A stretch of DNA of 37,808 nt from Pirellulales bacterium (GTDB lineage Bacteria; Planctomycetota; Planctomycetia; Pirellulales; PALSA-1355): NCBI GenBank assembly GCA_040901665.1, contig JBBDYK010000145.1:1-37808 (forward strand), given 5' to 3'. The position numbers and the translations under genes are program-made. The notes beneath the pieces were generated by a model. It did not search any database and was not told where the DNA came from. It saw nothing but the letters and a program-made list of their open reading frames with translations. This document shows, piece after piece, positions 10,044 to 30,598 of this stretch (position 1 is its first letter; the number at the start of each line of letters is the position of its first letter).

Positions 10044-10143
10044 CAGTTGGGTGGCACTGGCGTGTCGCCAGTGCAGTGCGAACACTGGCAAAATGCCGGT
10101 GCCATTCTGACGAGTGAGTGTGAAATCGGCAGGAGCTCGAAAG

Positions 10144-11940: not shown

Positions 11941-11989
11941 TAGGCCGTGTTCGTTGCGTATCTTTACGATTGCGACTGGGAACCTCTCG

Positions 11990-12208: not shown

Positions 12209-12711
12209 GTTCGTTCTTCGCGCGGCGGCAGCACCATTTGAGTCTGAGTGACCAGGGCAATGAGCTTGCCGTCGTCGCTGGTGACGCGCGTCTGCCAGAC
12301 CATGGTGGTCCGCCCCAGGTGCAACGGCGTGGACTCGCCGAGCACGCTGGCGCCCAAGGGCGCGGCGCGCATGAAGTTCGTCTTCGATTCGATCGTCGTG
12401 GTGCCCGCGCCGGCCGGAAGATTCGCCACGGTGCCGGTCGCCCCCAGCGTATCGGCGAAGGCCATGATCGAGCCGCCGTGCAGGATGTCGCCCACAGTAC
12501 ACAGGTCGCGACGCACGGTCAGCTTTGCCCGCACCCGCTGCGGCGTGATCTCCAAAAACTCAATGCCCAGCGTTGCCGGCAGCAAGTCCTTCATCCGTTC
12601 GTGCGCGACTTTTATCGGATCCACGGGTAGTTCGCTCCCTATGCGGACTGAAGACAAGTTAGCCACCGAGAACACGGAGGGCTCAGAGGAATGAGGAACC
12701 TCGCTGACCAC
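12205..12711 (-). CDS. PaaI-family hotdog-fold acyl-CoA thioesterase
   Basis: LGIEFLEITPQRVRAKLTV...GDILHGGSIMAFADTLG....ESKTNFMRAA is the typical PaaI/4HBT pattern. The start is uncertain. The first ~30-40 codons have weak GC3 bias, so GTG 12624 (GGGAG upstream) or ATG 12594 are alternatives. Confidence 0.75.
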   Translation of the reverse strand: MVSEVPHSSEPSVFSVANLSSVRIGSELPVDPIKVAHERMKDLLPATLGIEFLEITPQRVRAKLTVRRDLCTVGDILHGGSIMAFADTLGATGTVANLPAGAGTTTIESKTNFMRAAPLGASVLGESTPLHLGRTTMVWQTRVTSDDGKLIALVTQTQMVLPPREERT

Positions 12712-12798
12712 GTCGACCTGGTTGACGTTCCTTCCCGTTCTCGGTGTCCTCGGTGTACTCGGTGGCCAATCCTAATTCAAGTGCGATGACCAACGGCG

Positions 12799-14361
12799 TC
12801 ACGGGCACTCGCACGCCTTTTCGCGCAGCACGCGGCGCAGGATCTTACCGATGTTGCTCTTGGGGAGCATCGTCTCGAAGTGCACGCGCGTGGGCGCTTT
12901 GAACTTTGCCACCTGCTTGCACGCGTGCTCGATCACCTCCCGCTCGGTGAGCGTCTGGCCGGGCGCCACCACCACGAACGCCACCACGTTCTCGCCGTAA
13001 ATCTCGTCGGGCACGCCCACCACGGCGGCTTCGGCGACGGCCGGATGCTCGTGCAGCACGGCCTCCAACTCGGCCGGATAAATGTTCTCGCCGCCGCGGA
13101 TGATCATGTCCTTCTTGCGATCGACCACGAACAGGTATCCGTCCTCGTCCAGATAGCCGATGTCGCCGGTGTGCAGCCAGCCGTTGCGCACCGTTTCGGC
13201 GGTGGCCTCCGGCTTGTTGTGATAGCCGCGCATGACCACCGGCCCGCGAATGCAGATCTCGCCGCGCTCGCCGGTGGGCAACGGCCGATCGGCATCGTCG
13301 ACGATCTGCATTTCCATGTTGATGTACGCCCGCCCCGCACTGCCGGGTCGATAGGGCTCGCTGCGCCGGTTCACCGTGCCCATGCCAGACGCCTCGGTCA
13401 AGCCGTACACCTCGCGAATGCGGCACGGATAGCGCTGCATGAAGGCCTGCGCCAGCTCGACCGGCAGCGGCGCTCCACCGCAAATGATTTCTACCAGCGA
13501 CGACAGGTCATACTGCTTCGCGCTGGGATGATGCAACAGCAGCGCCAACACGGTGGGCACCGCGGCGGTCGTGTTGACCCGGTGCTTCGCGATCAACGCC
13601 ATGAACGACTCCGGCTCGAACCAGCGCATCTGCACCAGCCGCGTCGCCTCGGCCAGATGCTTGGGCGTGCGCAACAAGTCGTTCATGATGGCCACGCCGA
13701 AGATGTGGGCGATCGGCATGCCGCTGAGCGAGACGCGAGGGCCTTCCCACAGATGCAGCTCTGCCCCTTCACTCACCGCGTCGGAACTGGCCAGCAGATT
13801 CGTGTGCGACAAGAGCACGCCTTTGGGTCGTCCCGTCGTGCCCGATGAATACAGCATCACGGCCGTGCTGTCCGGATCGATGTTCGCCAGCGACGATTGC
13901 GGGTCGAATTGCAACAGCGACTCGAGCCGTGCCTCCGGCGGCGTGGCTTGCGGATTGTCGTCGCCGCCCACCACCACGATGTGGCGCAGGTGGGGCAGCC
14001 CGGCCGCGGCTTCGCGCCCCACCGGCAATAGTTCGGCGTCGGCCACGATCAACTGTGCCTCGGTGTCGGCCAGCACATAGCGCAGCTCGGGCGCTGCCAG
14101 TTGCGGCATCACGGGCACGGCCGCGCCGCCAGCGCGAAAAACGCCCTGCATCACAGGAAACAAGAGCGGATGGTTCATCATCATCACCACGGCGCGACCG
14201 CCTGGTGTCAGGCCCAATTCCGACAGGCCGCCTTGCAGCCGCCGGCCATCTTCCAGCAGTTGCCAATTGGTGAACCGCTGGCCGTCGATCTCGTAGTTTG
14301 CATGTTCGCCCAGCCGCTCGGCCGAGTCTTCCGCCAGTTGCGCGAGATTGGTAACCGCCAT
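12799..14361 (-). CDS. AMP-dependent acyl-CoA synthetase/ligase (ANL superfamily)
   Basis: AMP-binding core motifs are present: YSSGTTGRPKGV, YGLTE, and TGDIGYLDEDGYLFVVDRKKDMIIRGGENIYP. The ORF is full length at 520 aa. Confidence 0.9.
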   Translation of the reverse strand: MAVTNLAQLAEDSAERLGEHANYEIDGQRFTNWQLLEDGRRLQGGLSELGLTPGGRAVVMMMNHPLLFPVMQGVFRAGGAAVPVMPQLAAPELRYVLADTEAQLIVADAELLPVGREAAAGLPHLRHIVVVGGDDNPQATPPEARLESLLQFDPQSSLANIDPDSTAVMLYSSGTTGRPKGVLLSHTNLLASSDAVSEGAELHLWEGPRVSLSGMPIAHIFGVAIMNDLLRTPKHLAEATRLVQMRWFEPESFMALIAKHRVNTTAAVPTVLALLLHHPSAKQYDLSSLVEIICGGAPLPVELAQAFMQRYPCRIREVYGLTEASGMGTVNRRSEPYRPGSAGRAYINMEMQIVDDADRPLPTGERGEICIRGPVVMRGYHNKPEATAETVRNGWLHTGDIGYLDEDGYLFVVDRKKDMIIRGGENIYPAELEAVLHEHPAVAEAAVVGVPDEIYGENVVAFVVVAPGQTLTEREVIEHACKQVAKFKAPTRVHFETMLPKSNIGKILRRVLREKACECP

Positions 14362-14499
14362 ACCTGGTTCGCTCCCTGCGAGAGTGTGCCATGAGCGCGC
14401 GCATTGCTCGAAAGATGCACGCGGCCTGCTTGATTACAGCGGACAGAAAACACGTCCGCCAGGAATCAGGATAGCGAATCGCTTTGGTCCACGCCGCGC

Positions 14500-14558
14500 A
14501 AAAAAATGAAAAAAATGTGTTCACCCCGCGAGGCCGCCGGGCCGCTGTCGTCTACAAT
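14500..14558 (+). promoter_or_regulatory. candidate promoter elements in the divergent ligase/dehydrogenase intergenic region
   Basis: There is a tandem 9-nt A-tract repeat, AAAAAAATG x2, at 14500-14517. This is striking in high-GC DNA. A TACAAT -10-like hexamer lies at 14553-14558, 45 nt upstream of ATG 14603. I could not place a convincing -35. Confidence 0.25.
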
Positions 14559-14602
14559 CACAACCGCCTGAGGAGGCAATTGCGAATCCGGGAGCCACCA
14601 CG

Positions 14603-15790
14603 ATGGACCTCGCTTACGGAACCCAGTACGAAACCCTGCGACGAGAGGTCCGGCAATTCATCGCCGACCATGGGCATCTTGCGCCCAAGAACCTGCTGGA
14701 GATCGATCGCGCCAAAACCCGCGCCTGGCAGGAACTGTTGATCCAACACGGGTACGTGGCCCGCGCCGTGCCGAAGCAGTACGGCGGCTACGGCGCGCCG
14801 CTCGATCCGCTCGAGGCGCATCTGATCGCCGATGAGTTCGCCCGCGCTCAAATCGCGCCCGGCTTCGGCGGCCAGGGCATCGCCTATCTCGTGCCCGCAC
14901 TGTTGGAACTGGCCACCGAGGAACAAAAGAAGCGCTTTGTCCCCCCCACGCTCACCACCGAGATCATCTGGTGCGAGGGCTATTCCGAGCCCAACGCCGG
15001 CAGCGACCTGGCCAGCCTCAGCACCAGCGCCCGGCTGGAAGGCGACCACTGGGTCGTCAACGGCCAGAAGATCTGGACCAGCACGGCCGAGAGCGCCGAC
15101 TGGATGTTCTGCCTGGTGCGCACCGAGCCCGACGCGCCCAAGCACCAGGGCCTGAGCTTTCTGCTGTTCTCGATGCGCACGCCCGGCATTCGCGTCCGCC
15201 CGCTGAAAACGATGACCGGCGACGCCCACTTCAACGAAGTGTTCTTCACCGACGTGCGCGTGCCCCAGGTCCAGATCGTTGGCGAGCGCGGGCAAGGTTG
15301 GCTGGTGGCCAACAACGTCCTGCTGCACGAGCGCGACGATCTGGGCGATCCCGACGCCACGCTGCAGAGACTCAATGCGCTGGTGGACTTGATGAAGAAA
15401 GAAACGGCCGCCGGTGGGCGCATCATGGATAACGCCGCTTACCGCGACCGCCTGCTCCGCCTGCAGGGCCGTGTGATGGCGCTGCGCTACAACCACCTGC
15501 GGTTGCTAAGCGCCAAGCTCAACAATAAGGACGCCTCGCTAGCGGCCATGATCGTCAAGTTGCAAGGCACCGAGCTGCGCCACGAGCTCGAAGGGCTGGC
15601 CGTCGACGCGCTCGGCGAGCTGGGCATTCTGTACCAAGAGGGCCGCCACCTGCGCGACGGCGGATCGTGGCAGACCATGTACATGTTCTACCTCGGTCTG
15701 ATCATCGGCGGTGGCACGTCGCAAATTCAAAAGAACATCATCAGCGAGCGCGGACTCGGCATGCCGCGCGAGCCAAAAGTAAAAGCCTAA
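14603..15790 (+). CDS. acyl-CoA dehydrogenase family protein (likely catalytic subunit)
   Basis: GGGAG at 14590-14594 lies 8 nt before the ATG. The ACAD middle-domain pattern is EPNAGSDLASLSTSA....W.VNGQKIWTS. The C-terminus is GGGTSQIQKNIISERGLGMPRE. Confidence 0.85.
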   Translation: MDLAYGTQYETLRREVRQFIADHGHLAPKNLLEIDRAKTRAWQELLIQHGYVARAVPKQYGGYGAPLDPLEAHLIADEFARAQIAPGFGGQGIAYLVPALLELATEEQKKRFVPPTLTTEIIWCEGYSEPNAGSDLASLSTSARLEGDHWVVNGQKIWTSTAESADWMFCLVRTEPDAPKHQGLSFLLFSMRTPGIRVRPLKTMTGDAHFNEVFFTDVRVPQVQIVGERGQGWLVANNVLLHERDDLGDPDATLQRLNALVDLMKKETAAGGRIMDNAAYRDRLLRLQGRVMALRYNHLRLLSAKLNNKDASLAAMIVKLQGTELRHELEGLAVDALGELGILYQEGRHLRDGGSWQTMYMFYLGLIIGGGTSQIQKNIISERGLGMPREPKVKA

Positions 15791-15856
15791 CAAAGAAACG
15801 GGACGGCCTGGGAGCGCTTCGCCGCCCGTTCCGTTTTTCAGCCAGCAGGGTTCGCC

Positions 15857-16939
15857 ATGGAATTTGGACTCTCCGCCGAACAAACGATGCTGCAAGACAG
15901 CGTCGCGAAGTTTCTCGATCGTACCAGCCCCTTGGAGCGCGTGCGCCGCTTCTGCGAACAGCGGGAACAACGCGCCCAGGACGTCTGGTCCGGCCTGTGC
16001 GATCTGGGCATTCCCGGCCTCTTCGTCGCCGAAGAGCACGGCGGCATCGGCTGCTCGCTGCTCGATGCGGCGCTGGTGGCCGAGACGCTCGGCTCCCGCG
16101 TCGCGCCGGTGCCGTTTGTCGCCACGGCCGTCATGGCGCCCTTGGCCATCGCCACGGCCGGTTCGCCTGCCCAACAAGCAAAGTGGCTGCCGGCGCTGGC
16201 CGAAGGCAAAGTCGTCGTCGGCGCGGCGCTTTCCACAGCCGCCAGCAATCGCCTCACCGATCCGGTGCAAGCTGATGGCGCCAAGCTACGCGGCCGGGCG
16301 CTGTTCGTGCTCGATTTCGAGGCCGACGCCTATCTCGTCGCCGACAGCCAGCAACGGCTCTACCTCGTCGACGCTAACGACTCGGGAGTTCACCGCGAAT
16401 CGCTCGCCACCATCGACCGCACCCGCATCGTGGGTGAGCTGGTGTTCGAAGATGCCGCCGCGGAGCTCTTGCCGGGCAGCAACGATCCGGATGTTTGCGC
16501 CCGTGTGATCGACGCCGGTCGCATCGTGCTGGCGGCCGACACGTTGGGCGCGGCGAGCACGATGCTCAGCCGGGCCGTGGCGTACTCGAAGGAGCGTGTG
16601 CAGTTCGGCCGGCCGATCGGCTCGTTCCAGGCGGTCAAGCACCTGTGCGCCGAGATGGCGGCCGAGCTCGAGCCGTGCCGCGCCATGATGTGGTATGCAG
16701 CCCACGCCTTCGACGCGATGCCCGACGAGACCCGCCTCAATGCCTGTCACGCCAAGGCCCATCTTTCGGAAGTGGGCACGCGCGTCGCCCGCACCTCCAC
16801 CGAAGTCCACGGCGGCATCGGCTTCACCGACGAGCTAGGCCTGCACTTGTGGTTCAAGCGCATCGGCGCCAATCGCCAGTTGCTCGGCGGCCCCGATCAG
16901 CTCCGCGACGAAGCGGCCCGTTTACAGCAGTGGGTTTAG
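15857..16939 (+). CDS. acyl-CoA dehydrogenase family protein (possible non-catalytic partner subunit)
   Basis: ACAD N- and C-terminal patterns are present: GIPGLFVAEEHGG, KERVQFGRPIGSFQAVKH and EVHGGIGFTDE. It starts 66 nt after the first ACAD gene. Confidence 0.8.
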   Translation: MEFGLSAEQTMLQDSVAKFLDRTSPLERVRRFCEQREQRAQDVWSGLCDLGIPGLFVAEEHGGIGCSLLDAALVAETLGSRVAPVPFVATAVMAPLAIATAGSPAQQAKWLPALAEGKVVVGAALSTAASNRLTDPVQADGAKLRGRALFVLDFEADAYLVADSQQRLYLVDANDSGVHRESLATIDRTRIVGELVFEDAAAELLPGSNDPDVCARVIDAGRIVLAADTLGAASTMLSRAVAYSKERVQFGRPIGSFQAVKHLCAEMAAELEPCRAMMWYAAHAFDAMPDETRLNACHAKAHLSEVGTRVARTSTEVHGGIGFTDELGLHLWFKRIGANRQLLGGPDQLRDEAARLQQWV

Positions 16940-17021: not shown

Positions 17022-18413
17022 CTACATCAATCCCCAGGCCGGCACCAGTCGAAACAGCGCAATCGCCAACGCCGTGCCAGCCAGGGGAATGAGCAAGGTC
17101 GTGACGAACACCGGGCCATACGCGCGGGCATGCGTTTCGCCGCAGACGTTGCGGATCAGCATCACGATATAACCGTTGGCGGGCAGCGAATCGAGCGAGC
17201 CAGACGCGATCGCCACCACGCGGTGCAACGCTCGCGGCGCCACCCCCAATTGATCGACGAAGATCGGCTTGATGATCGGCAGCGCCAAGCCTTGTCCGCC
17301 GGAAGCGCTGCCCGCCATGCCGGCGATCACGGCGACGGCCAGCGCCGCGCCGATCAACGGATCGCCCGGGACGTTGGTCACCCAGTCCACCATCCGCTCG
17401 AAGGCCGGCAAGCCCTGCATCGCCGAACCAAAGCCGACGACCGAGCAGGTGGCGCCGATGGCAATCAGCCCGTTGCCAAAGCCCTCGGCCAGCGATCGAC
17501 CCGCCGAGACGAACGGCCACAGGCAAATGAGCGCCGTCAGCACGCCGGCAAAGATCGCCACGGTCGGATCGGCGGGAAACGCCGCCCACAATCGCGGCGC
17601 CACGTTGAGCGCCAAGAGCGTCACGATCAACGGCGCCAGCGCTGCGCCCAATCGCGGCAACCGCTCGATATCAGTCGCGCGTTCCGTGCTTGACATCTCA
17701 CCCTCGGGCACGTCGCCCGCAGCGCCGGTCGCAGCACCGCTGCGAAGGTCGCGGGCAATGGCCCAATCGAGATACCATTGCCCGGCTGCGAACATCAGCC
17801 CCGCCACGATCAGGCTCACGGGCCAGCCTGCCAATGCGTCGGTCAGCGGCTCCCCGGTCGAAGCGTCGATCAGGTACTGAATTGGAATCAGGTTCTGGAT
17901 CTCCGGCGATCCGGCCGAGGTCATCGTAAACGTCACGCTGCCGAAAGCGATCGCCGCAGGAATGAAGCGATGCGGCAGCTTCGCCTCGCGAAACAACCGT
18001 GCGGCCAGCGGGTACACCGAGAATCCCACCACGAATAGCGACACGCCGCCATAGGTCAGCACCGCGCAGGCCAGCACCACGGCCAGGCACGCTCGCTGCG
18101 GCCCTAGCACGCGCACCACGGCCTGCGCAATGCGTGCCGCGGCGCCCGAGTGTTCCATCAGCTTGCCGAAACTCGCGCCCAGCGCAAAGATCAAATAGAA
18201 CCGCCGCAGATAGTCGGCGAAGCCCACCATGTACCGCCCGGTCATGCCTTCCACCGGATCGGCACCGCTGAACACCAGCACCATCAAGGCGCAAAACGGC
18301 GCCACCACGAAGATGCTCTGGCCGCGATAGACCAGCACGGTCAACAGCAGCAGCCCGCCCACGAGCACCGCCAGACCGTAGCCGGCATTGAGGACTTCCA
18401 TTCGGCGATCCAT
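17022..18413 (-). CDS. GntP-family (gluconate:H+ symporter-like) organic-anion permease
   Basis: Polytopic 463-aa protein. It has the pattern FALGASFGKLMEHSGAAARIA....YGGVSLFVVGF..YPLA..LF..A.LP.RFIPAAIAFGSVTFTMT, which I associate with COG2610/GntP-type permeases. Confidence 0.6.
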   Translation of the reverse strand: MDRRMEVLNAGYGLAVLVGGLLLLTVLVYRGQSIFVVAPFCALMVLVFSGADPVEGMTGRYMVGFADYLRRFYLIFALGASFGKLMEHSGAAARIAQAVVRVLGPQRACLAVVLACAVLTYGGVSLFVVGFSVYPLAARLFREAKLPHRFIPAAIAFGSVTFTMTSAGSPEIQNLIPIQYLIDASTGEPLTDALAGWPVSLIVAGLMFAAGQWYLDWAIARDLRSGAATGAAGDVPEGEMSSTERATDIERLPRLGAALAPLIVTLLALNVAPRLWAAFPADPTVAIFAGVLTALICLWPFVSAGRSLAEGFGNGLIAIGATCSVVGFGSAMQGLPAFERMVDWVTNVPGDPLIGAALAVAVIAGMAGSASGGQGLALPIIKPIFVDQLGVAPRALHRVVAIASGSLDSLPANGYIVMLIRNVCGETHARAYGPVFVTTLLIPLAGTALAIALFRLVPAWGLM

Positions 18414-18691
18414 CAGCGACTGATGATTTGGACTACTGGCATAGCAGCGTACCGGCGGCTATCTGCCAGCACAACCAACCCGCAGGCGCTCGGGGGCAAA
18501 CATCCAGCGGCCAGCGTCCCGGCCGTCGGGCGCTTGTTTCCGGGCAGCGGCTGGTTTAGATTTGACGTGCTCGCAGGATGGGATTTGTCCGCACGCAGCG
18601 GCCGAACCCATCTTCCCCCGTCGAGATTGCACTGCATGCGAGCGGTCAGTGTGCCCGACTCTGGGTTTCGCAGATGGAGTGACTCTCGATC

Positions 18692-21145
18692 ATGCGTCGT
18701 CTTGTCGCACTGTTGGTGATCGTCTCCGCGTTCGTTTCGCTGGCTTCGGCCGAAGAGTCCGCTCCCGCGCCCCAGATTCCGGGTTGGGTCGCGCGCGGCA
18801 GCGCCTGGCATCCGGCCGAGCCCTATGCCGAAGGTCAACCGCGCGCCACCAGCCTGCAGTTGCCCTTTCCCAAGATGCGCTCGTTGGAAAGTAATTCCAT
18901 GTCGCCCGAGAAGGTGGCGCTGGGCAAGCTGCTGTTCTTCGATCCGCTGCTCAGCGGCCAGAACACGATCTCTTGTGCCCACTGCCACCATCCCGACCAT
19001 GGCATGGCCGACGGCCGCAAGCTGAGCATGGGCTTCGGCGGCACGGGTGTCGGGCCCGAGCGCACCGGCGGCGACGTGCTGGGCCGCAGTGCGCCCAGTC
19101 TCTGGAACGCCGCCTACTACAAATGGCAGTTCTGGGACGGCCGCGCCGACGATCTCGAAGCGCAGGCTGCCGGACCCATCACCAACGAGCACGAGATGGG
19201 CGAGAAGCCCGAGACGCTGGTCAAGGAGCTGCGCGACAACCCCGAGTACGTCGCGCTGTTTCAAAAGGTGTACGGCGGCAGCACGGACGAAGCAGTGACG
19301 TTCGAAAACACCTGTCGCGCGATCGCCGCCTTCGAGCGCACCCTGCTGTCGTTCAACTCCAAGTTCGATCGCTATACGGCCGGCGACACCACGGCGCTCA
19401 ACGAGCAGGAACGTAGCGGCATGCGGCTGTTTCGGTCGCTCAAGACGCGCTGCTTCGAATGCCACAACTTTCCCACCTTCGCCGACGATAGCTTCCGCGT
19501 GATCGGCGTGCCGGACAACGGGCCCCACGACCCGGGCCGCGCCGGCGTGCCGAACGAAGGCCCCGACGGCGCGTTCAAGACCACCAGCCTGCGCAACATC
19601 GAGCTCACCGCTCCGTACATGCACAACGGCGCGTTCAACAGGCTTGAGGAAGTCATCAAGTTCTATGCCAAGGGAGGCGGCCGCGGCGAACCGAATCCCG
19701 TCGACGGCATCGACGACAAAATCGGCAAGTTCGACATCACCGACGCCGAAGTGGCCGACCTGGTGGCCTTCTTGAAAGCCCTCACCGATACCTCGCTGCA
19801 ACCGGTTCCGCCGGAGCAAGTGCCCAGCGGCTTGCCGATCGTCGCAGTGAAAACCAGGCCGATGCCGGCGACCCCAGCGTCGACTCCCGCGGCGGTCGCC
19901 GTGGCCGGCGCGCCCGCTTCGCGTCCGGCGACATCCTCCCCACCCGCCGCCGCCGCGCGGCCCGCGCAGCCGCTCACCGGCTTCTCCGACGGCAATCTCA
20001 ACCGCACGGCCGAGCGCGCCGTGCTGAGCATCGCCTCGGCGCGCAGCGCTTCGGCTGCGGCCGGCCCCTGGGTCGGCGCCGCGAGCGTCGCCGCCACGTT
20101 CACCGTGCGCCCCGGTCAATCGATTCAAGCCGCCGTCGATCGCTGCCGTGCCGGTGATCGCGTGCTGCTCGAACCGGGCGTCTATCAACAAACGGTCGTC
20201 ATCGACACCGACGGCATCACGCTCTCTGGCGTCAATCGCCAGGGCGAGCGCCCCGTGCTCGACGGCGGCGGCACGCTGGCCGACGCCGTGCAAGGCTCCG
20301 GCGGCAACCTGCTCATCGCAGGGCTCACCATTCGCAATTATGTCGGCAACGGCATCATGGTCAGCAAGGCCAAGAACGTCGCCTTCCGCAACCTGGTCAT
20401 CGAAAACTCCGGCTTGTACGGCGTCTACCCCGTCGAGTGTACCGGCGTGCTGGTCGAAGGCTGCACGGTCAGCGGCATTCGCGACGCGGGCATCTATGTC
20501 GGCAGCAGCCGCGACGTCGTCGTTCGCAATAACGAGGTCTACAACAACGTGGCCGGCATCGAGATCGAAAACTCCGTCGGCTCGCTGGTGGAGAACAACA
20601 GTGCCCACCACAATACTACCGGCATCCTGGTGTTCGCGCTGCCGAACAATCCCGTGAAGGAGTGCCGCGATACGCGCGTGATCAACAACCGCGTGTGGGC
20701 CAATAACCACGAGAACTTTGCCAAGCCCGGCACCACCGTGGCCAATCTGGCGCCGGGCGTGGGTATCGTGGTGATGGCCGCCGACCGCACCGAAGTGACC
20801 CAGAACCGCATCAGCGAGAACGACTCGTACGGCATCGTGGTGGTCTCGCTCGCCGCCGCGCGGCTGCCGGCCCGGCGCACGGTTGACGTCGAGCCCAACT
20901 CGGACCAGACGCTGATCGTGGCCAACCAGTACGAGAACAACGGCCGTCACGCGCACCAGTTGTTCGCCCAAGTGCTCAAGGCGCCCGGCGGCGATCTATT
21001 CTGGGATGGCAGCGGCGCCGGCAACGATTGGCGCGAGAGTCGCAATCTAGCGACGTTTCCCCAAGATCTACTCGGACCCGCCGGTCCGTCCAGTGCGCAA
21101 ACTACTCCCGTGCAAACCAATTCATCGGCAGGAGGTTCCAAATGA
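18692..21145 (+). CDS. secreted di-haem cytochrome c peroxidase/MauG-family domain fused by a Pro/Ala linker to a right-handed parallel beta-helix (NosD/CASH-like) domain
   Basis: The signal peptide is MRRLVALLVIVSAFVSLASA. There are two CxxCH motifs (CAHCHH, CFECHN), plus FWDGRADDLEAQAAGPI and the PYMHNGAF Met-ligand context. The linker runs about 19844-20098. After it come repeated ~22-aa rungs (N.V.N....G....S....V..N). Confidence 0.85.
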   Translation: MRRLVALLVIVSAFVSLASAEESAPAPQIPGWVARGSAWHPAEPYAEGQPRATSLQLPFPKMRSLESNSMSPEKVALGKLLFFDPLLSGQNTISCAHCHHPDHGMADGRKLSMGFGGTGVGPERTGGDVLGRSAPSLWNAAYYKWQFWDGRADDLEAQAAGPITNEHEMGEKPETLVKELRDNPEYVALFQKVYGGSTDEAVTFENTCRAIAAFERTLLSFNSKFDRYTAGDTTALNEQERSGMRLFRSLKTRCFECHNFPTFADDSFRVIGVPDNGPHDPGRAGVPNEGPDGAFKTTSLRNIELTAPYMHNGAFNRLEEVIKFYAKGGGRGEPNPVDGIDDKIGKFDITDAEVADLVAFLKALTDTSLQPVPPEQVPSGLPIVAVKTRPMPATPASTPAAVAVAGAPASRPATSSPPAAAARPAQPLTGFSDGNLNRTAERAVLSIASARSASAAAGPWVGAASVAATFTVRPGQSIQAAVDRCRAGDRVLLEPGVYQQTVVIDTDGITLSGVNRQGERPVLDGGGTLADAVQGSGGNLLIAGLTIRNYVGNGIMVSKAKNVAFRNLVIENSGLYGVYPVECTGVLVEGCTVSGIRDAGIYVGSSRDVVVRNNEVYNNVAGIEIENSVGSLVENNSAHHNTTGILVFALPNNPVKECRDTRVINNRVWANNHENFAKPGTTVANLAPGVGIVVMAADRTEVTQNRISENDSYGIVVVSLAAARLPARRTVDVEPNSDQTLIVANQYENNGRHAHQLFAQVLKAPGGDLFWDGSGAGNDWRESRNLATFPQDLLGPAGPSSAQTTPVQTNSSAGGSK

Positions 21146-22290
21146 AACGCTCGTTGAAATGTATCGCGCCGGCCGCTCTCGTGGTACTCTCGCTAGTGAC
21201 CATCTCCGCCCGGGCTGAAGAGGAAAAGTATCCCGCGCGCAACGCGCAGGCGCCGGCCGTCGGTCCGCAGACCGTGCGCGGCACATTCACCGTGGCGCCG
21301 GGACAATCGATCCAAGCGGCCGTCGATCGGGCTCGCCCCGGCGACCGCATCGAAGTGCTGCCCGGCACGTATAGCGAGAGTGTCACCATCGATTTCGACG
21401 ACATCGAGCTGGTCGGCGTCGTGCAAAACGGCGAGCGGCCCGTTCTCGATGGCAAGACCACCATGAATGACGCCGTGATCACCTCGGGAAATAACTTCGT
21501 CATCTCCGGCTTTGAAATTCGCGACTACAAGGGCAACGGCGTCGTCGTCAGCCAGGCCAAGAACGCCACCTTCAAGAATCTGGTCTGTCACAACACGGGC
21601 AAGTACGGCGTCTATCCCGTGCTCTGCCAGGGCGTGCTGGTCGAAAACTGCGTCGTGTCCGACGTGTGGGACGCCGGCGTCTATGCCGGACAGTGCCAGG
21701 ACGTCGTGATCCAGAATTGTGAGGGCTATCGCAATACCATCGGCATCGAAACCGAGAACTGCGTCAACGTGGTGATGGCAAACAACTCGGCCCACGACAA
21801 TTCGCTGGGCCTGCTGGTCGTGCTGCTGCCCGATTTGCCCACCACCATCGCCACCAACGCGCGCGTGATCAACAACCGCGTCACCAACAACAACTACCCC
21901 AACCTGGCGCCGCAGGGCAACATGGTCAGCATGGTCGAGCCCGGTAACGGCATCGTCATCAACGCGGCCGACAACACGGAAGTGACCAAGAACGAAGTGC
22001 GCGGCAACGGCTCCTATGGCATCGCCATGTATGCGTTGACCGACGTGTTTCCACCCGACCGCAAGCTGAACGTCGAGCCCAATCCCGACCGCAATTTCAT
22101 CCACGACAACAAGCTCTCGGACAACGGCGGCAACGTTTCGAAGCGCTTGGGCTCGCTGGGCGCCACCGGCGGCGATCTGTTCTGGAGCGGCAAAGGCGCC
22201 GGCAACGGCTGGAACGAGGCCACCGACAAAACGTTCCCCGAGAAGCTGCCCGGCTGGGGCGGAGTGCCGGCAGCAGGCGGCGGAGATTGA
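21142..22290 (+). CDS. secreted right-handed parallel beta-helix repeat protein, paralogue of the C-terminal domain of the preceding gene
   Basis: ATG 21142 overlaps the upstream stop (ATGA at 21142-21145), and GGAGG at 21131-21135 lies 6 nt upstream. The signal peptide is MKRSLKCIAPAALVVLSLVTISARA. Long stretches align without gaps to residues ~470-800 of the upstream protein (FTVAPGQSIQAAVDRARPGDRI vs FTVRPGQSIQAAVDRCRAGDRV). Confidence 0.85.
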   Translation: MKRSLKCIAPAALVVLSLVTISARAEEEKYPARNAQAPAVGPQTVRGTFTVAPGQSIQAAVDRARPGDRIEVLPGTYSESVTIDFDDIELVGVVQNGERPVLDGKTTMNDAVITSGNNFVISGFEIRDYKGNGVVVSQAKNATFKNLVCHNTGKYGVYPVLCQGVLVENCVVSDVWDAGVYAGQCQDVVIQNCEGYRNTIGIETENCVNVVMANNSAHDNSLGLLVVLLPDLPTTIATNARVINNRVTNNNYPNLAPQGNMVSMVEPGNGIVINAADNTEVTKNEVRGNGSYGIAMYALTDVFPPDRKLNVEPNPDRNFIHDNKLSDNGGNVSKRLGSLGATGGDLFWSGKGAGNGWNEATDKTFPEKLPGWGGVPAAGGGD

Positions 22291-22433
22291 TGCGACGCTT
22301 TATCGACTCCACGACGACCGCGAACTTCCGATTCGCGGCGCACGGCCACACCTGGTGCTGCGCGCCGCGGATCGGCGTGGCTTTACCCGCTTGATCCCTG
22401 CCGAATGCCAACCCTCCACCAAGGACAGCTACG

Positions 22434-24575
22434 ATGCGCCAGCGCACCCGATTCTTGGCACTTCCCGCCGCGCTCTTGCTGATGACGATCAACGCAACGG
22501 CCGCCGAGCGCGCCGCTAGCTCGGCATATCCCGATGCTCCCACGGCCGACGTGGTCGACGATTACCACGGCACGCGCGTGCCCGATTTGTATCGCCCGCT
22601 GGAAGATCCCGATGCGCCCCAATCGCGCGCCTGGATCGACGCCGAGAACAAGATCACGTTCGCCTTCCTCGAAGGCATTCCCGCCCGCGAGCCGCTCAAA
22701 GAGCGCCTGACCAGGCTGTGGGACTACGAAAAGTTCGGCGTGCCGTCGCGCGAGGGCAGGCGCTACTTCCTCACCCGCAATAGCGGACTGCAGAACCAAA
22801 GCGTGCTCTACACGCTCTCGTCGTTGGATGCCGAGCCGAAAGTGCTGCTCGACCCCAACACGCTATCGAAGGATGGCACCGTGGCATTGTCCGGATTGGC
22901 GATCAGCGAAGACGGCAGCAAGATGGCCTATGCGTTGGCCGATGCCGGCAGCGATTGGATCACCTGGCACGTCCGCAACGTGGCCAGCGGCCTGGACACC
23001 GACGACATCGTGCGCTGGAGCAAGTTCTCCGGCGCCAGTTGGACCAAGGACGGCGCGGGCTTCTTCTATGGACGCTATCCCGAGCCCAAGGAAGGCGAAG
23101 ACTTGCTGGCCTCGAACTATTTTCAAAAGCTCTACTACCACAAGCTGGGCACGCCGCAAGCCGACGACGCGCTGATCTATGAAACGCCCGACCACAAGGA
23201 GTGGCACTACTCGAACCAGGTCAGCGACGACGGCAAATACCTGATCATCGGCGTGGCTCGCAGCACCGAAGACGTCAACATGCTGCTCTACAAGCGGCTG
23301 GCCGAGGCCGATGCGCCGCTGGTCCCGCTCATCGACAACTTCGACGCCGGCTACGAGTTCATCGACAACGACGGCCCCGTGTTCTACCTCAAGACCAATC
23401 GCAACGCTCCGCGCAGCCGCGTCATCGCCATCGACACGCGCAAGCCGGCCGAAGAGCACTGGCAAGAGTTGATTCCGCAAGCCGACGAGCCGCTCACCGC
23501 CGCCAGCCTGGTCGGCGGTCGCCTGTTTGCCACCTACTTGAAAGACGCCCACTCGCAAGTCAAGGTGTTCGATCCGGCCGGCAAGTTCGAGCGCGAGGTG
23601 AAATTCCCAGGGCTAGGCACCGTCAGCGGTTTCGATGGCAAGCGTTCCGACAAGGAAACGTTCTACAGCTTCACTTCGTTCACCGTGCCCGACACGATCT
23701 ATCGCTACGACGTGGCCAGTGGCAAAAGCAGCGTCTTTCGCGCGCCGCAGGTGGATTTCAAGCCCGAGGACTACACTACCCAACAGGTTTTCTACGCCAG
23801 CAAAGACGGCACCAAGGTGCCGATGTTCATCAGCTATAAGAAGGGCCTGGCGAAGAACGGACAGACTGCCACGTTCCTGTACGGCTACGGCGGCTTCAAT
23901 ATTCCGATTACGCCGGCCTTCAGCGTGGCCAACCTGGTATGGATGGAAATGGGGGGCGTGTTTGCCGTGCCGAACCTGCGCGGGGGCGGCGAGTACGGCG
24001 AGGAGTGGCACAAGGCCGGCACCAAGCTGCAAAAGCAAAACGTGTTCGATGACTTCATCGCCGCGGCCGAGTGGCTCATCGCCCACAAGTACACTTCCAC
24101 GCCCAAGCTGGCCATCGGCGGCGGATCCAACGGCGGATTGCTGGTGGGCGCTTGCCTGACGCAGCGTCCCGATCTTTTCGGCGGCACGCTGCCGGCCGTG
24201 GGCGTGCTCGACATGCTGCGCTTCCACAAGTTCACCATCGGCCACGCCTGGGTCGACGACTACGGCTCGAGCGACAACGCCGACGAGTTTGCGGCGCTCT
24301 ATAAGTACTCGCCCCTGCACGCCATCAAGAGCGGCACGTGTTATCCGCCCACCATGATCACCACGGCCGATCACGACGACCGCGTGGTGCCGGCGCACAG
24401 CTTCAAGTTCGCCGCCGCGCTGCAAGCCGCGCAAGGCTGCGACAAGCCGATCCTGATCCGCATCGAAACCCGCGCCGGCCACGGCGCCGGCAAGCCCACC
24501 AGCAAGCGCATCGAAGAGGCCGCCGACCGCTGGGCCTTTCTGGTGAAAGTGCTGGGAATTGACTGGCCGGGATAG
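22434..24575 (+). CDS. prolyl oligopeptidase (peptidase S9A), secreted
   Basis: Signal-like N-terminus. The N-terminal propeller pattern is DDYHGTRVPDLYRPLED. The catalytic Ser is in GGSNGGLL, the Asp in TADHDDRV and the His in RAGHGAG. Confidence 0.9.
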   Translation: MRQRTRFLALPAALLLMTINATAAERAASSAYPDAPTADVVDDYHGTRVPDLYRPLEDPDAPQSRAWIDAENKITFAFLEGIPAREPLKERLTRLWDYEKFGVPSREGRRYFLTRNSGLQNQSVLYTLSSLDAEPKVLLDPNTLSKDGTVALSGLAISEDGSKMAYALADAGSDWITWHVRNVASGLDTDDIVRWSKFSGASWTKDGAGFFYGRYPEPKEGEDLLASNYFQKLYYHKLGTPQADDALIYETPDHKEWHYSNQVSDDGKYLIIGVARSTEDVNMLLYKRLAEADAPLVPLIDNFDAGYEFIDNDGPVFYLKTNRNAPRSRVIAIDTRKPAEEHWQELIPQADEPLTAASLVGGRLFATYLKDAHSQVKVFDPAGKFEREVKFPGLGTVSGFDGKRSDKETFYSFTSFTVPDTIYRYDVASGKSSVFRAPQVDFKPEDYTTQQVFYASKDGTKVPMFISYKKGLAKNGQTATFLYGYGGFNIPITPAFSVANLVWMEMGGVFAVPNLRGGGEYGEEWHKAGTKLQKQNVFDDFIAAAEWLIAHKYTSTPKLAIGGGSNGGLLVGACLTQRPDLFGGTLPAVGVLDMLRFHKFTIGHAWVDDYGSSDNADEFAALYKYSPLHAIKSGTCYPPTMITTADHDDRVVPAHSFKFAAALQAAQGCDKPILIRIETRAGHGAGKPTSKRIEEAADRWAFLVKVLGIDWPG

Positions 24576-25188: not shown

Positions 25189-26967
25189 TCAATCCGACGC
25201 CCGCGTCGCCTCGATATACGCCTTCACATTTTCTTCCAGCACGTCCAGCGGCACGGCGCCGCTGCCCAGCACGACGTCGTGAAACTGGCGCACGTCGAAC
25301 TTCTCGCCCAGTTGCTCCTCGGCTTGCTTGCGCAGCGCGCGAATCTTCAGCTCGCCCATCTTATAGGCCGTCGCCTGGCCGGGCCACGAGATATAGCGAT
25401 CCACCTCGGCCGCAATGTTGTGCAACGTGAGCGCCGTGTTGTCGGCCATGAACTGGATCGCCCGTTCGCGCGTCCAACCCAGGTAGTGCATGCCCGTGTC
25501 GACCACCAGCCGGCAGGCCCGCCACATCTCGTAGCTCAGCCGCCCGAAGTCGCGATAAGGATCTTTGTAAAAGCCGATTTCCAAACCCAGCCGCTCGGCA
25601 TACAGTCCCCAGCCTTCGACGAACGCCGTGGGATGCGCAAACCGCCGGAACTCCGGCAGCCCGGTCAGCTCCTGTTGCAGCGCGATCTGCAAGTGATGTC
25701 CCGGCACGGCTTCGTGCAGCGACAGCGCTTCGATCTCGAACAGCGGCCGGCTCTTCAGATTGTAGGTGTTCACGTAATAGAACCCGGCCCGCGTACCGTC
25801 GCCGGCCGGCGGCTGATAGTAGGCCGTCGTCGTGCGCGGCGCGATGAACGCCGGAATCTCGCGAACGCCATAGGGCGTGCGCGGCAGCGTCTTGAACAGC
25901 TTCGGCAGCTCGCCGTCGATCTGCTTCAGCACCAGACCCGTTTCCTTCATCAACTGCTCGGGCGTGTCGACATAAAACTTGGGATCGGTGCGCAAGTACT
26001 CGACAAACGCCGCGAAGTCGCCGTCGAAGCCCACCCGCTCGATCACGTCCTGCATTTCGGCCTTGATCCGCTTCACCTCGGCCAGCCCCGTCTCGTGGAC
26101 TTGCTCGGGATCGATGTCCAAGGTGGTGAAGTGCTTCACGCGATAGCGATAAAACGCGCGTCCCTGCGGCAGGGCACTGGCGCCGATCTGTTGCCGGCAG
26201 GCCGGCACGTACTCGTCCGTCATGAACGCCAGCAGCTTGCGATAAGCGGGCGCCACGCTCTCGGCAATCGCCGCCTTGCCCTCGGCCGTCAAGCGCGCGC
26301 GGTCTTCCGGACCGATGGAGTCGGGCCAATCCACGAAAGGAGCAAACAATAAGCTTCGCGTCGGATCGTCGACATCGTGCGGCGCAATCGCCTCGTCGAT
26401 ATCGGTCAGCACGACTGCTGGCGTGGTGAAGCCCTGTTTGATCCCCTCGCGCATCAGCTCGATGTGATCGTCGGTGTACTGTGCAAAAGCGCGCAGCCGC
26501 GCCACGTAGTTCTCGTAATCCTTGAGCGTCTTAAGCGGCGTGTGCTTGGGCAACTCTGGAAACGAAACGTGAAAGCCCGAGCGATTGGTGATCGGCATCA
26601 AGTACGATTGGAACTCGAACTCGCTGGCGCCGTCACGTCGTTGCCGGCGAAAGATGTCGTAGTTCACTTGCTCGGCCCGCGACAGTTTGTCGCGCTCGAT
26701 GGCGTCCAACCGCTTGAGAATCCCGCGCTCCACGTCGTTGCGGCGCGCCTGATCGGCCAGGGTCTCGCGCGGCAGCCGGTCGTTATAGCGCGCGTCCCCC
26801 GCGTGCGTGGCGAACAGCGGGTCCTCGGCCAGCGCGAACTCCCAGCTTTCGGCCAGCAGCTTGGCCAGTTGCTCGCTCGGCGAGTCATCGGCCCAGGCCG
26901 GCGCGACGCCAGGCAAGAGGAGAACGGCCGCGGCCGCCAGCGTTCGAAACTTGTTGGAGTGCAACAT
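25189..26967 (-). CDS. DUF885-family protein (predicted secreted metallopeptidase-like)
   Basis: A HExxGH-type motif is present (LHEAVPGHHLQ). Length and overall pattern are typical of DUF885. I start it at ATG 26967, giving the signal peptide MLHSNKFRTLAAAAVLLLPGVAPAWA. The track extension to 27066 would overlap the upstream gene. Confidence 0.75.
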   Translation of the reverse strand: MLHSNKFRTLAAAAVLLLPGVAPAWADDSPSEQLAKLLAESWEFALAEDPLFATHAGDARYNDRLPRETLADQARRNDVERGILKRLDAIERDKLSRAEQVNYDIFRRQRRDGASEFEFQSYLMPITNRSGFHVSFPELPKHTPLKTLKDYENYVARLRAFAQYTDDHIELMREGIKQGFTTPAVVLTDIDEAIAPHDVDDPTRSLLFAPFVDWPDSIGPEDRARLTAEGKAAIAESVAPAYRKLLAFMTDEYVPACRQQIGASALPQGRAFYRYRVKHFTTLDIDPEQVHETGLAEVKRIKAEMQDVIERVGFDGDFAAFVEYLRTDPKFYVDTPEQLMKETGLVLKQIDGELPKLFKTLPRTPYGVREIPAFIAPRTTTAYYQPPAGDGTRAGFYYVNTYNLKSRPLFEIEALSLHEAVPGHHLQIALQQELTGLPEFRRFAHPTAFVEGWGLYAERLGLEIGFYKDPYRDFGRLSYEMWRACRLVVDTGMHYLGWTRERAIQFMADNTALTLHNIAAEVDRYISWPGQATAYKMGELKIRALRKQAEEQLGEKFDVRQFHDVVLGSGAVPLDVLEENVKAYIEATRASD

Positions 26968-26998
26968 CAATCGTCTCACGGTTTCCAGTGTCAGCCGT

Positions 26999-28261
26999 TC
27001 AGCCCACGAGCGTGTTGGGTTGTTTCCAGTGCAGGCGCGCAACGTACACGCTGCCGTCGCTTCCATACTTCTCGCAGCCGACCGGCTGCATCCACTCGGC
27101 CACCGTCACCCAGGTCTCATCGCGCGTGACGTCCGTCACGCCAAAGTTCCCCAATCGGGCCCCGCGCTCGGGCACCAGCACTTGCTCGGTCGCGCGGATC
27201 ACGCACAGCTCTTCAGGATCGACTTGCGCCATCACCAGTGGCGCCCGATGGCGAAACACGTGGTCGTTGTTCAGGCCTCGCCGTGTGTAAACCAAAAACA
27301 CGCCGTCGCTGTGCGTCACCCAATGGGCCTGCGTATTGTAGCTGCCCAATTCGCTGCCGTCGTCAAACGTCCACGCCCGTAGCGGCCCGAAGTGCAGCCC
27401 GTCGCGGCCGCGGGCCACATACGCCCGGCGATCGTGCCGAACGGTCAGCAGATAATCGTCGCCGAACCGCGTCAGCGACGGCTCGCCCACGCCCCGCGTT
27501 TCGTCGTCGATGCCCAATTCGCTGCCGTGCTCCAGGTACTTCAATTCGTGCCCGTCGAAGCCGCACCGCATGACCGCCACCCGCGAGTTGCTTTCCGGCG
27601 GGCGAAAATAGAACGGCAGCAGAATCGTCCCGTCCGCCTCGTCGTAACGCTGTGTGCAGCCCGCGCCCGAGTTGTAGAACTTGGTCGCGTCGGGCATCGG
27701 CAGCTTCTGCCATGCCGACCAATCGTCGGCCGCCGGATCGTAGCTGGCAAACACCGACTGCCGCGGCCGCTGCGGCACGACTCTCCACTCGGGCGTATAG
27801 ACGACTGAGTGGCCCGTCGCCAGCAGCGACTTGCTGGCCGCGTGCCAGCCGGGCGTCAGATCGCTGGCCGCTACCGGCCGGCGCACGCCGTCGATCGTCT
27901 CCTCGCGCGGCGCCATCGGCTTGAGCTCATTGACGTCGCTCCACGTCTGGCCCATGTCGTCTGTCATGAGTCCGAACACGCCGCGAAACACGTCGCTGCC
28001 GGCCAGGTCCAGCGAGTTCATGGTCATCACCACGCGCGGCCGACCGTCGCGTCCGGCCCCCGCCACGATCCCCGCCCGCGGATGGCACCAGCAGCGCTTG
28101 CCGTCAAAGAACTTCGTCGGCACGTCGCGCGAGAGCCGATAGGCCAGCGCATTGTCTTCGTCTGCCACGGCCCGCCCGCGCCGCACTCCCATCGGCACCG
28201 CCAGCAATGACACCCCAGCCACAAGCGACGACTGCAAAAACGCGCGACGAGAATTTGGCAT
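26999..28261 (-). CDS. BNR/Asp-box beta-propeller protein, sialidase-like glycoside hydrolase, Tat signal
   Basis: I start it at ATG 28261. The Tat motif is SRRAFLQSSLVAGVSLLAV. There is an Asp-box, TDDMGQTW (S/T-x-D-x-G-x-T-W). The 97-aa upstream extension in the track is junk. Confidence 0.65.
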   Translation of the reverse strand: MPNSRRAFLQSSLVAGVSLLAVPMGVRRGRAVADEDNALAYRLSRDVPTKFFDGKRCWCHPRAGIVAGAGRDGRPRVVMTMNSLDLAGSDVFRGVFGLMTDDMGQTWSDVNELKPMAPREETIDGVRRPVAASDLTPGWHAASKSLLATGHSVVYTPEWRVVPQRPRQSVFASYDPAADDWSAWQKLPMPDATKFYNSGAGCTQRYDEADGTILLPFYFRPPESNSRVAVMRCGFDGHELKYLEHGSELGIDDETRGVGEPSLTRFGDDYLLTVRHDRRAYVARGRDGLHFGPLRAWTFDDGSELGSYNTQAHWVTHSDGVFLVYTRRGLNNDHVFRHRAPLVMAQVDPEELCVIRATEQVLVPERGARLGNFGVTDVTRDETWVTVAEWMQPVGCEKYGSDGSVYVARLHWKQPNTLVG

Positions 28262-28279
28262 GGCTGGAATCCGCCAGCG

Positions 28280-28501
28280 ATGGCAGGGCAGGGGGCATGG
28301 GAACCGAGCAAATCCGACCGCATCCATTCTACCACGCCGCTGCTCGTGACGATCGCTCGCGCCTACAAGCATTTTGGCGACGCGCTCGACGAGCGCAGGC
28401 CGCTGTTCGACGCCCGCGCACGGGAGATCGCCAAGCAAGAGATCGAGCACGAACGCTGGGTGCAGTACTGCCAGGAGCGTGCGATTTTTGGCCCGCATTG
28501 A
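28280..28501 (+). CDS. possible small protein (up to 73 aa) upstream of the toxin gene
   Basis: The C-terminal 50 codons (LLVTIARAYKHFGDALDERRPLFDARAREIAKQEIEHERWVQYCQERAIFGPH) have protein-like composition and strong GC3 bias. The start is uncertain: ATG 28280 or an internal GTG near 28340. No family recognised. Confidence 0.3.
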   Translation: MAGQGAWEPSKSDRIHSTTPLLVTIARAYKHFGDALDERRPLFDARAREIAKQEIEHERWVQYCQERAIFGPH

Positions 28502-28565
28502 TCGCGGGCCATTCGACGCTTTCTCCCTCGATTCAGACGGCAATGCGCGCACCTAGAGGCACGAC

Positions 28566-30122: not shown

Positions 30123-30127
30123 CTGTT

Positions 30128-30595: not shown

Positions 30596-30598
30596 GCA

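Follow-up and report, generated by a model that had tools for sequence, protein, structure and literature searches.

A MauG-like di-haem enzyme that is covalently attached to a beta-helix of the uncharacterised family TIGR03805 is encoded on contig JBBDYK010000145.1 of a Pirellulales bacterium (GenBank assembly GCA_040901665.1; positions 1 to 37,808 were analysed and are called the window below). The gene for this fusion protein (gene 1) overlaps the gene for a free-standing paralogue of its beta-helix (gene 2), and the two form a translationally coupled module of two periplasmic or secreted proteins. A MauG-like enzyme with a dedicated partner is known; new is that the partner is an uncharacterised TIGR03805 beta-helix and that it is usually covalently attached to the enzyme. 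Full-text literature searches revealed no paper on a MauG/beta-helix fusion or on the function of TIGR03805 (the words "fusion" and "helix" do not occur in the text of the published similarity network of the superfamily), in agreement with a preliminary description of this locus, made from the sequence alone, which knew of no characterised example. By analogy with MauG and MbnH, we propose, with somewhat less than even confidence, that the target of oxidation by the di-haem domain is a conserved Tyr/Asp/Glu site of the partner beta-helix, reached in cis as well as in trans.

The N-terminal part of the gene 1 product matches the Pfam model CCP_MauG (PF03150) over residues 72-233 (E 3e-57, 193.8 bits, gathering cut-off 25.6 bits) and contains exactly two CxxCH motifs, one at residue 95 (CAHCH) and the other at residue 254 (CFECH). 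Both haem motifs are invariant in 115 aligned orthologues, as are H100, W148, Q158, E168, H311 and Y325, and P162 is conserved in at least 90% of them. Q158, P162 and E168 are residues of the distal pocket; W148 lies within an FWDGR motif between the haem domains. Tyr325 aligns with the axial haem ligand of MauG and the corresponding Tyr of MbnH (Table 1), and its equivalent is kept in the split proteins of Zhongshania and Ruegeria described below. When the PDB was searched with the sequence of the whole domain, canonical di-haem peroxidases ranked first (5e-48), followed by MbnH (6E1C, 4e-39) and MauG (1e-30). Most of the peroxidase alignments end at about residues 324-327, whereas those to MbnH and MauG extend to residues 372-386, and the last 86 residues of the haem domain alone match MbnH (5e-14) and MauG (5e-7) better than canonical peroxidases (4e-5 or worse). 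Furthermore, the distal His of the peroxidases ("tgHg" in Geobacter CcpA) aligns with Phe in the SMGFGG motif of gene 1, and most orthologues have no His there. The AlphaFold2 model of gene 1 (mean predicted local distance difference test score, pLDDT, 86; predicted template modelling score, pTM, 0.85) was compared with known structures using Foldseek. The TM-score normalised to target length (TMt) was ~0.8 for bacterial peroxidases and ~0.7 for MbnH and MauG, with values of 0.66-0.81 and E-values down to 4e-18 for 3o5c, 4aam, 6e1c and 3l4m. The domain is closed by a family-specific VPSGLP motif, which is kept at the C-terminus of the split proteins.

The complete CCP/MauG-type di-haem domain that had been read from the letters alone is thus confirmed. 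With its Tyr ligand conserved and its C-terminal half closest to MbnH and MauG, it is a complete member of the bacterial cytochrome c peroxidase (bCCP)/MauG superfamily and of the MauG/MbnH type. Because gene 1 stays below the cut-offs of the equivalog models for both MauG (TIGR03791, 212.2 versus 443.85 bits) and MbnH (TIGR04039, 225.1 versus 362.85 bits), the domain is best classified as a separate branch of the MauG-like group. Identity with the canonical bacterial peroxidases was rejected, as gene 1 has Tyr325 at the position of their Met ligand and Phe in place of their distal His.

With scores of 229.5 bits (gene 1) and 186.2 bits (gene 2), the beta-helices of the window exceed the NCBIfam cut-off for TIGR03805 (141.5 bits), and both proteins fail the NosD model TIGR04247 (61.1 and 49 bits, respectively, versus a cut-off of 300 bits). 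The beta-helix had initially been labelled as NosD/CASH-type. The fold and weak NosD matches stand (Pfam, gene 1: Beta_helix 2e-29 and NosD 7e-14, next to CCP_MauG; gene 2: Beta_helix and NosD only), but membership in NosD was rejected both on score and on context, as no NosFY or nosZ context was found among the window ORFs scanned. Matches of gene 2 in NCBIfam are limited to TIGR03805, the NosD model and a beta-helix repeat model, with none to MbnP, and a PDB sequence search with gene 2 gave no match. Its AlphaFold2 model (pLDDT 91.5) resembles the A-modules of the mannuronan epimerases AlgE4 and AlgE6, Pel9A and PL6 lyases at the level of the fold only (E about 6e-8 to 1e-7, TM ~0.5, 12-14% identity).

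TIGR03805 is a large family, with 807 representatives at 50% identity (E <= 1e-30) from more than 10 phyla. In a family-wide alignment of fused, free, split, SO2930-paired and stand-alone members, the invariant functional-looking residues are Y576, D598, Y602, E624 and E626 (gene 1 numbering) and an Asn ladder; both window proteins carry them. To judge from the strand pattern of the model, the five residues would lie on the same sheet of consecutive rungs.

The architecture of gene 1 is widespread. A search of 5.8 billion proteins retrieved more than 100 full-length proteins of this architecture (48-86% identity), and the fusions with named sources come from Pirellulales/Planctomycetia, Hydrogenedentota, Verrucomicrobiota, Acidobacteriota/Blastocatellia and Armatimonadota. 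When genomes were scanned separately, with one per species, further fusions came to light in Sumerlaeota, Marinimicrobia, Chloroflexota, Poribacteria and other groups, so that partnering of the di-haem domain with the beta-helix, fused or adjacent, is found in more than 10 bacterial phyla. The closest genome match is a metagenome-assembled genome of Planctomycetaceae (locus L007, 91% identity). When the arrangement was tallied in 84 loci, the two parts were fused in ~48 (Planctomycetota, Sumerlaeota, Verrucomicrobia, Acidobacteriota, Armatimonadota, Marinimicrobia, Chloroflexota, Poribacteria, others) and encoded by separate adjacent genes in ~20, with a gap of -3 to +60 nt in most. The latter loci belong to 13 Gammaproteobacteria and further Pseudomonadota, two Deltaproteobacteria/Myxococcota, one planctomycete and one member of Caldilineales. 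In two loci (L060, Lysobacterales, and L062) the separate genes stand in reversed order.

As the two halves are fused in some lineages and adjacent in others, they make up a Rosetta-stone pair. These comparisons indicate that the haem domain is functionally tied to the beta-helix, and that the latter is its obligate partner even when the genes are split. The preliminary description had named the occurrence of two separate genes in relatives as a sign that the fusion is an artefact. Such genes indeed exist in Proteobacteria, but they form a genuine split operon, which strengthens the functional link between haem domain and beta-helix. A conserved third gene around the fusion was looked for by all-versus-all clustering of open reading frames (ORFs) from 89 loci and was rejected: only clade-specific neighbours emerged (cytochrome c in Chloroflexota and Gammaproteobacteria, PBP1a in Blastocatellia), and the upstream genes of the verrucomicrobial and acidobacterial loci are mutually unrelated.

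The split systems and their relatives carry further redox modules. In Zhongshania aliphaticivorans, the operon encodes a di-haem cytochrome c, a MauG-like protein (385 aa, with the Tyr kept and ending in ...VPSGLTPV...), a beta-helix with a C-terminal cytochrome c domain, and a TonB-dependent receptor. In Ruegeria pomeroyi DSS-3, the split operon is located on the megaplasmid (NC_006569, 162.8-167.0 kb) and comprises genes for a cytochrome c, a "cytochrome c peroxidase", a tetratricopeptide repeat (TPR) protein and a beta-helix to which a cytochrome c domain is joined. In deltaproteobacterial loci, the beta-helix bears an amicyanin-like cupredoxin in place of cytochrome c. In 14 Chloroflexota loci, a conserved small gene is located just upstream of the fusion, and its product, in the one case scanned, is a mono-haem cytochrome c. 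The di-haem cytochrome of the SO2930 family (TIGR03806) is likewise found next to, or in one protein with, other TIGR03805 members. The recurrence of cytochrome c, cupredoxin and SO2930 modules therefore implies that the beta-helix is systematically coupled to electron-transfer modules containing haem or copper. A similarity of the SO2930 cytochrome to the CCP domain was considered as well and rejected, there being none beyond the haem motif.

Single architectures and surroundings of TIGR03805 proteins can be listed here. Fusions with SO2930 (TIGR03806) are represented by P0311, P0333 and P0376, fusions with amicyanin-like cupredoxin by P0248, P0256 and P0239, and tandem beta-helices by P0252 and P0275. 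The genes flanking the Zhongshania operon (L046, 4606-12713) encode a secreted, PKD domain-containing subtilase and the TonB-dependent receptor. In Novosphingobium (L091), a gene pair for TIGR03805 and SO2930 is located between TonB-dependent receptors.

The free-standing protein of the window is a close paralogue of the beta-helix of gene 1, as had been noticed before: residues 450-802 of gene 1 and 32-378 of gene 2 are 52% identical in an alignment of 353 columns that has 6 gap positions (E 5e-104), a similarity far beyond chance. Gene 2 keeps the site residues (Y155, D177, Y181, E203, E205) and is relaxed at E582, S606, K656, F676, M695 and D772, which are invariant in the fused domain and may be its interface positions. 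A free copy follows the fusion in Pirellulales relatives (with a 4-nt overlap of the called genes in L001, and with genes for an S9 peptidase and a DUF885 protein downstream), in Hydrogenedentota and in one unassigned lineage; in Sumerlaeota, it is located 3.5 kb downstream. Two tandem free copies were found on one contig. No free paralogue is present in the loci surveyed from Verrucomicrobia, Acidobacteriota, Chloroflexota, Armatimonadota and Marinimicrobia. In a distance tree, the gene 2 orthologues form one clade of 52 clusters, and the sister branch consists of fused helices from the Planctomycetota/Hydrogenedentota/Verrucomicrobia group. The free copies of Hydrogenedentota branch beside their own fusions, and free copies therefore arose at least twice. 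By this distribution, the free paralogue is a lineage-restricted accessory rather than part of the core. It was rejected as a universal partner, being missing from the loci of the five phyla above. The preliminary description had raised the question whether the free copy always follows the fusion and had suggested a MauG-like maturase acting on it. As it does not always follow, maturation of the free paralogue cannot be the core function, and the conserved partner is the beta-helix itself, fused or adjoining.

Two unusual loci belong to this part of the family. In L094 (2431-5591), a di-haem protein of 589 aa has only the first ~100 residues of the helix, and the next gene encodes a complete free beta-helix of 395 aa; two further proteins of 600-608 aa, P0065 and P0066, may be similarly truncated. 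L093 (4642-8487) contains a gene 2 orthologue (P0148), but no CCP gene was called within 6 kb of it; its neighbours encode a 368-aa protein without Pfam match and a 422-aa protein with a faint cytochrome c match.

In the reaction that we propose, the five-coordinate N-terminal haem would react with H2O2, or with O2 plus electrons, and the oxidising equivalents would be shared with the His/Tyr-ligated second haem via Trp148, giving a MauG-like bis-Fe(IV) state. The hole would then cross a fixed domain interface to the beta-helix, where the cluster of Y576, D598, Y602, E624 and E626 on successive rungs would be the target or the working site. Besides the beta-helix fused to it, which it would serve in cis, the di-haem domain would also serve the free paralogue in trans. 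The outcome would be either a post-translational Tyr-based cofactor or metal site, or the turnover of a ligand held there. In this scheme, the use of peroxide, the high-valent state, the transfer of a hole and the nature of the target are all modelled on MauG and MbnH, which provide the precedents for a high-valent di-haem state (PMC6405878, PMC11951088). In favour of the proposal are the MauG/MbnH type of the haem domain, its conserved pairing with the beta-helix and the redox carriers that recur in the beta-helix family. As to the interface, gene 1 encodes two domains and a disordered linker in 817 aa, and a pTM of 0.85 for such a protein suggests that the interface is confidently predicted, and the two domains of gene 1 probably pack together; the same value and the family-specific motif at the end of the haem domain suggest that the interface is fixed. 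Action in trans is plausible in view of the at least two origins of free copies, of their retained core site residues, and of the L094 variant, whose truncated fused and complete free helix argue that a helix need not be attached to the haem domain to work with it.

Several points weigh against this proposal. The whole di-haem domain still scores best with the canonical peroxidases and below the MauG and MbnH equivalog cut-offs. The position that we take to be the surface Trp199 of MauG is Thr252 in gene 1. A relative of MauG with Tyr as its target is not known to us. The residues that are invariant across the beta-helix family include no His, Cys, Met or Trp, which excludes a product of the tryptophan tryptophylquinone (TTQ) or kynurenine type as a universal feature. 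Finally, a maturase fused 1:1 to its substrate would be uneconomical, which favours continuous turnover over one-off maturation.

A different and, in our judgement, unlikely possibility is that the oxidation is directed to a bound non-protein substrate: the beta-helix would bind, e.g., a glycan, another polymer or a small molecule, which the di-haem domain would oxidise or cleave. It would use H2O2 or O2 for this, in the manner of RoxA and the oleate diol synthases, which belong to the same superfamily, and the free paralogue would add binding capacity. The closest folds of the beta-helix are indeed carbohydrate-active (AlgE4 epimerase, Pel9A, PL6 lyases), but these matches are weak, as seen above. 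The catalytic motif does not appear to be kept either: the look-alike motif in the window reads YGVYPVE, compared by eye with what we take to be the AlgE-type motif, YG(F/I)DPH(D/E). Permanent fusion would fit a pair of catalytic and binding modules, and the superfamily includes enzymes acting on non-protein substrates (PMC6311187, PMC4496055). A gene for a BNR/sialidase-type protein is located upstream in L001; however, no genes for carbohydrate-active enzymes (CAZymes) or sugar transport are conserved around the module. Furthermore, substrate binding leaves unexplained why the beta-helices of the split systems bear cytochrome c or cupredoxin domains.

Still less probable, we think, is a role in metal handling, in which the Tyr/Asp/Glu site would bind a hard metal such as Fe or Mn, or possibly Cu, and the di-haem domain would oxidise or reduce the metal, cf. 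EfeB/EfeO or the copper homeostasis of MbnH/MbnP next to TonB-dependent transporters. The invariant residues (two Tyr, one Asp and two Glu) are a typical ligand set of the Fe(III) type, but conserved His, Cys and Met for Cu are absent. The weak NosD-family matches would fit this role as well, and so would the TonB-dependent receptors flanking the system in Zhongshania and Novosphingobium, the more so as MbnH/MbnP pairs are likewise located beside TonB-dependent transporters (PMC3621798). However, no TonB receptor or metal transporter is found near the module in the window or in most fused loci.

That gene 1 encodes an ordinary periplasmic cytochrome c peroxidase for H2O2 detoxification, with the beta-helix as a mere anchor or adhesion module and neighbouring cytochromes c as electron donors, is very improbable. 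The ranking of the whole domain in the PDB and the cytochrome c genes directly upstream in Chloroflexota and Gammaproteobacteria speak for it, but the Met ligand is replaced by Tyr in 115 of 115 orthologues, the distal His is absent, the polar site of the beta-helix is strictly conserved, the partner is obligate even when split, and the window has no donor cytochrome nearby, the nearest being ~17 kb away. An assembly or frameshift artefact joining two genes is effectively refuted: full-length fused orthologues have been obtained independently from numerous assemblies and phyla and number more than 100, and the in-frame GC content at third codon positions (GC3) is 0.83 over the whole ORF. On the other side, L007 (8064-10345), L022 and L092 (3950-5952) have an interrupted fusion ORF, with the break within the Pro/Ala linker or close to it. 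These breaks, in a low-complexity linker and on contigs whose names suggest long-read assemblies, are probably indel errors rather than true split genes.

Among known systems, gene 1 and its partner work most like the conserved pairs of di-haem enzyme and partner protein MbnH/MbnP and MauG/pre-methylamine dehydrogenase (preMADH) (PMC11951088, PMC3621798), yet gene 1 fails the membership tests for both MbnH and MauG. In MbnH/MbnP (TIGR04039/TIGR04052; PDB 6E1C, 7L6G), the di-haem enzyme is likewise MauG-like and has a Tyr where the axial ligand is expected, and MbnH is the best match to the C-terminal half of the haem domain of gene 1. MbnH, too, forms a conserved pair with a periplasmic partner, which it oxidises, and the pair is often encoded beside TonB-dependent transporters, as are the proteobacterial split versions. 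In contrast to MbnP, which is rich in Trp, the partner here is a TIGR03805 beta-helix without family-wide conserved Trp, it is covalently fused in most phyla, and the MbnH score is too low (225 versus 363 bits). With MauG (TIGR03791; PDB 3L4M), the di-haem fold and, by alignment, the ligand Tyr294 (Y325) are shared. We take W148 to correspond to Trp93, and Q158, P162 and E168 to Gln103, Pro107 and Glu113 of MauG. The cupredoxin and cytochrome c domains on the partner of the split systems recall amicyanin and the cytochrome c carriers of the MauG system. However, the score is again too low (212 versus 444 bits), Trp199 presumably has Thr as its counterpart, a Trp pair is excluded as the target, and none of the window genes scanned is a mau operon gene (methylamine dehydrogenase subunits, amicyanin).

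The other comparisons are more distant. The pair of TIGR03805 with TIGR03806 ("SO2930 family di-haem c-type cytochrome") also joins a TIGR03805 protein to a di-haem cytochrome by pairing or fusion, but the haem partner in gene 1 has the CCP/MauG fold and is N-terminal, whereas SO2930 is dissimilar and C-terminal. The canonical di-haem peroxidases (Geobacter CcpA 3HQ8, Shewanella 3O5C) are the best whole-domain match in sequence and fold and share the peroxide-site residues; they differ in the Met ligand and distal His (Tyr and Phe in gene 1), in the lack of a beta-helix fusion and in the Asn of the Ca site, the position of which is Ser133 in gene 1 and variable among orthologues. NosD and the CASH-type epimerases and lyases (AlgE4, AlgG, Pel9A, PL6) have in common with the window proteins the right-handed parallel beta-helix fold, but neither the NosD score (61 and 49 versus 300 bits) nor the identity to epimerases and lyases (12-14%) supports a closer relationship.

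The features of the gene pair are listed in Table 1. The order of signal peptide, complete di-haem domain, linker and beta-helix given in the preliminary description agrees with the ORF, the Pfam matches, the two CxxCH motifs and the AlphaFold2 model, and linker and beta-helix are both present; only their lengths had to be corrected, to ~80 aa (not ~85) and ~335 aa (not ~350), respectively. Residues 385-465, which form the linker, consist of 64% Pro, Ala, Ser and Thr, pLDDT drops below 50 at residues 405-459, and both length and sequence of the linker differ among orthologues. For gene 2, a plausible Sec signal peptide with cleavage between MKRSLKCIAPAALVVLSLVTISARA and EEE was found by inspection. 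The junction (21131-21145, GGAGGTTCCAAATGA) confirms the coupling described earlier, with an ATGA overlap and GGAGG 6 nt upstream. In-frame GC3 of gene 2 is 0.82; this value and that of gene 1 match real genes of a window with 64% GC. A scan of positions 18300-22600 for promoters and terminators gave nothing beyond shuffled expectation. Genes for ATP-binding cassette (ABC) proteins of the NosFY type, the absence of which had been noticed before, were indeed not found among the window ORFs scanned.

Table 1. Positions of the gene pair and its elements in the window (coordinates of the whole stretch)
Feature	Position	Strand	Basis
Gene 1, secreted di-haem MauG/MbnH-like domain fused to TIGR03805 beta-helix, 817 aa	18692..21145	+	ORF, domain matches, 115 full-length orthologues, AlphaFold2
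Sec-type signal peptide of gene 1, MRRLVALLVIVSAFVSLASA, cleavage between MRRLVALLVIVSAFVSLASA and EE	18692..18751	+	by inspection
Di-haem CCP/MauG-fold domain, residues ~47-384	18830..19843	+	PF03150, PDB sequence matches, Foldseek
Haem motif 1, C95-A-H-C98-H99, peroxide-binding haem by homology	18974..18988	+	invariant in 115/115
Haem motif 2, C254-F-E-C257-H258, six-coordinate haem by homology	19451..19465	+	invariant in 115/115
Codon of Tyr325, aligned to MauG Tyr294 (axial haem ligand) and MbnH Tyr	19664..19666	+	HMMER alignment to MauG chains, 6e1c
Pro/Ala/Ser-rich disordered linker, residues 385-465	19844..20086	+	composition, pLDDT
Beta-helix domain of gene 1 with site residues Y576, D598, Y602, E624, E626	20087..21091	+	TIGR03805
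GGAGG ribosome-binding site of gene 2	21131..21135	+	6 nt before ATG
ATGA start/stop overlap, TGA of gene 1 on ATG of gene 2	21142..21145	+	sequence
Gene 2, secreted free-standing TIGR03805 beta-helix paralogue, 382 aa	21142..22290	+	ATG at 21142

Besides the gene pair, the window contains several other genes. A gene for a mono-haem cytochrome c (939-1442, +) is located directly upstream of a gene for a thiamine pyrophosphate (TPP)-dependent enzyme (1479-3443, +), the N-terminus of which (residues 8-36) matches the twin-arginine translocation (Tat) signal model PF10399; the two may be a pair of exported TPP enzyme and cytochrome. Positions 4098-16939 are occupied by a catabolic cluster of the leucine/acyclic-terpene type that is unrelated to the gene pair; it encodes an enoyl-CoA hydratase, a carboxyltransferase (5708-7342), a biotin carboxylase/biotin carboxyl carrier protein (7941-10043), AtuA (10114-11940), a thioesterase, an acyl-CoA synthetase and two acyl-CoA dehydrogenases. 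Downstream of gene 2, genes for an S9 prolyl oligopeptidase (22434-24575) and a DUF885 protein (25189-27066, -) are syntenic with the gene pair in its close relatives among Planctomycetota (L001, L005 and L007) only. An 861-aa protein with Amidohydrolase_2 and class-III aminotransferase domains is encoded at 33809-36397 (-). Three long ORFs without Pfam match (26999-28552, -; 28566-30122, +; 36183-37787, +) have coding-like GC3 or length, and GC content drops to 0.54 at 30001-31000.

In the literature consulted, only TTQ biosynthesis and the conversion of Trp to kynurenine in MbnP are established as functions of di-haem enzymes of the MauG class, and a third member, BthA, is an orphan. The system described here adds a large family with a new obligate partner, in which enzyme and partner are one polypeptide in most lineages; the single fused polypeptide would be a self-contained system for long-range oxidative chemistry. 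TIGR03805 proteins and their SO2930 cytochrome partners become approachable as redox-linked proteins, and Ruegeria pomeroyi DSS-3 and Zhongshania, which are cultured and carry the split version, make genetics feasible. Carried further, though here we regard the whole as rather unlikely, TIGR03805 beta-helices would be a new class of periplasmic redox proteins, the active site of which is either a Tyr-based cofactor derived from the protein itself or a metal centre with Tyr and carboxylate ligands. A dedicated MauG-like di-haem domain would install this site and possibly re-oxidise it, and cytochrome c, cupredoxin or SO2930 cytochromes would be the electron wires. If so, the TIGR03805 system would be the beta-helix counterpart of methylamine dehydrogenase/MauG/amicyanin.

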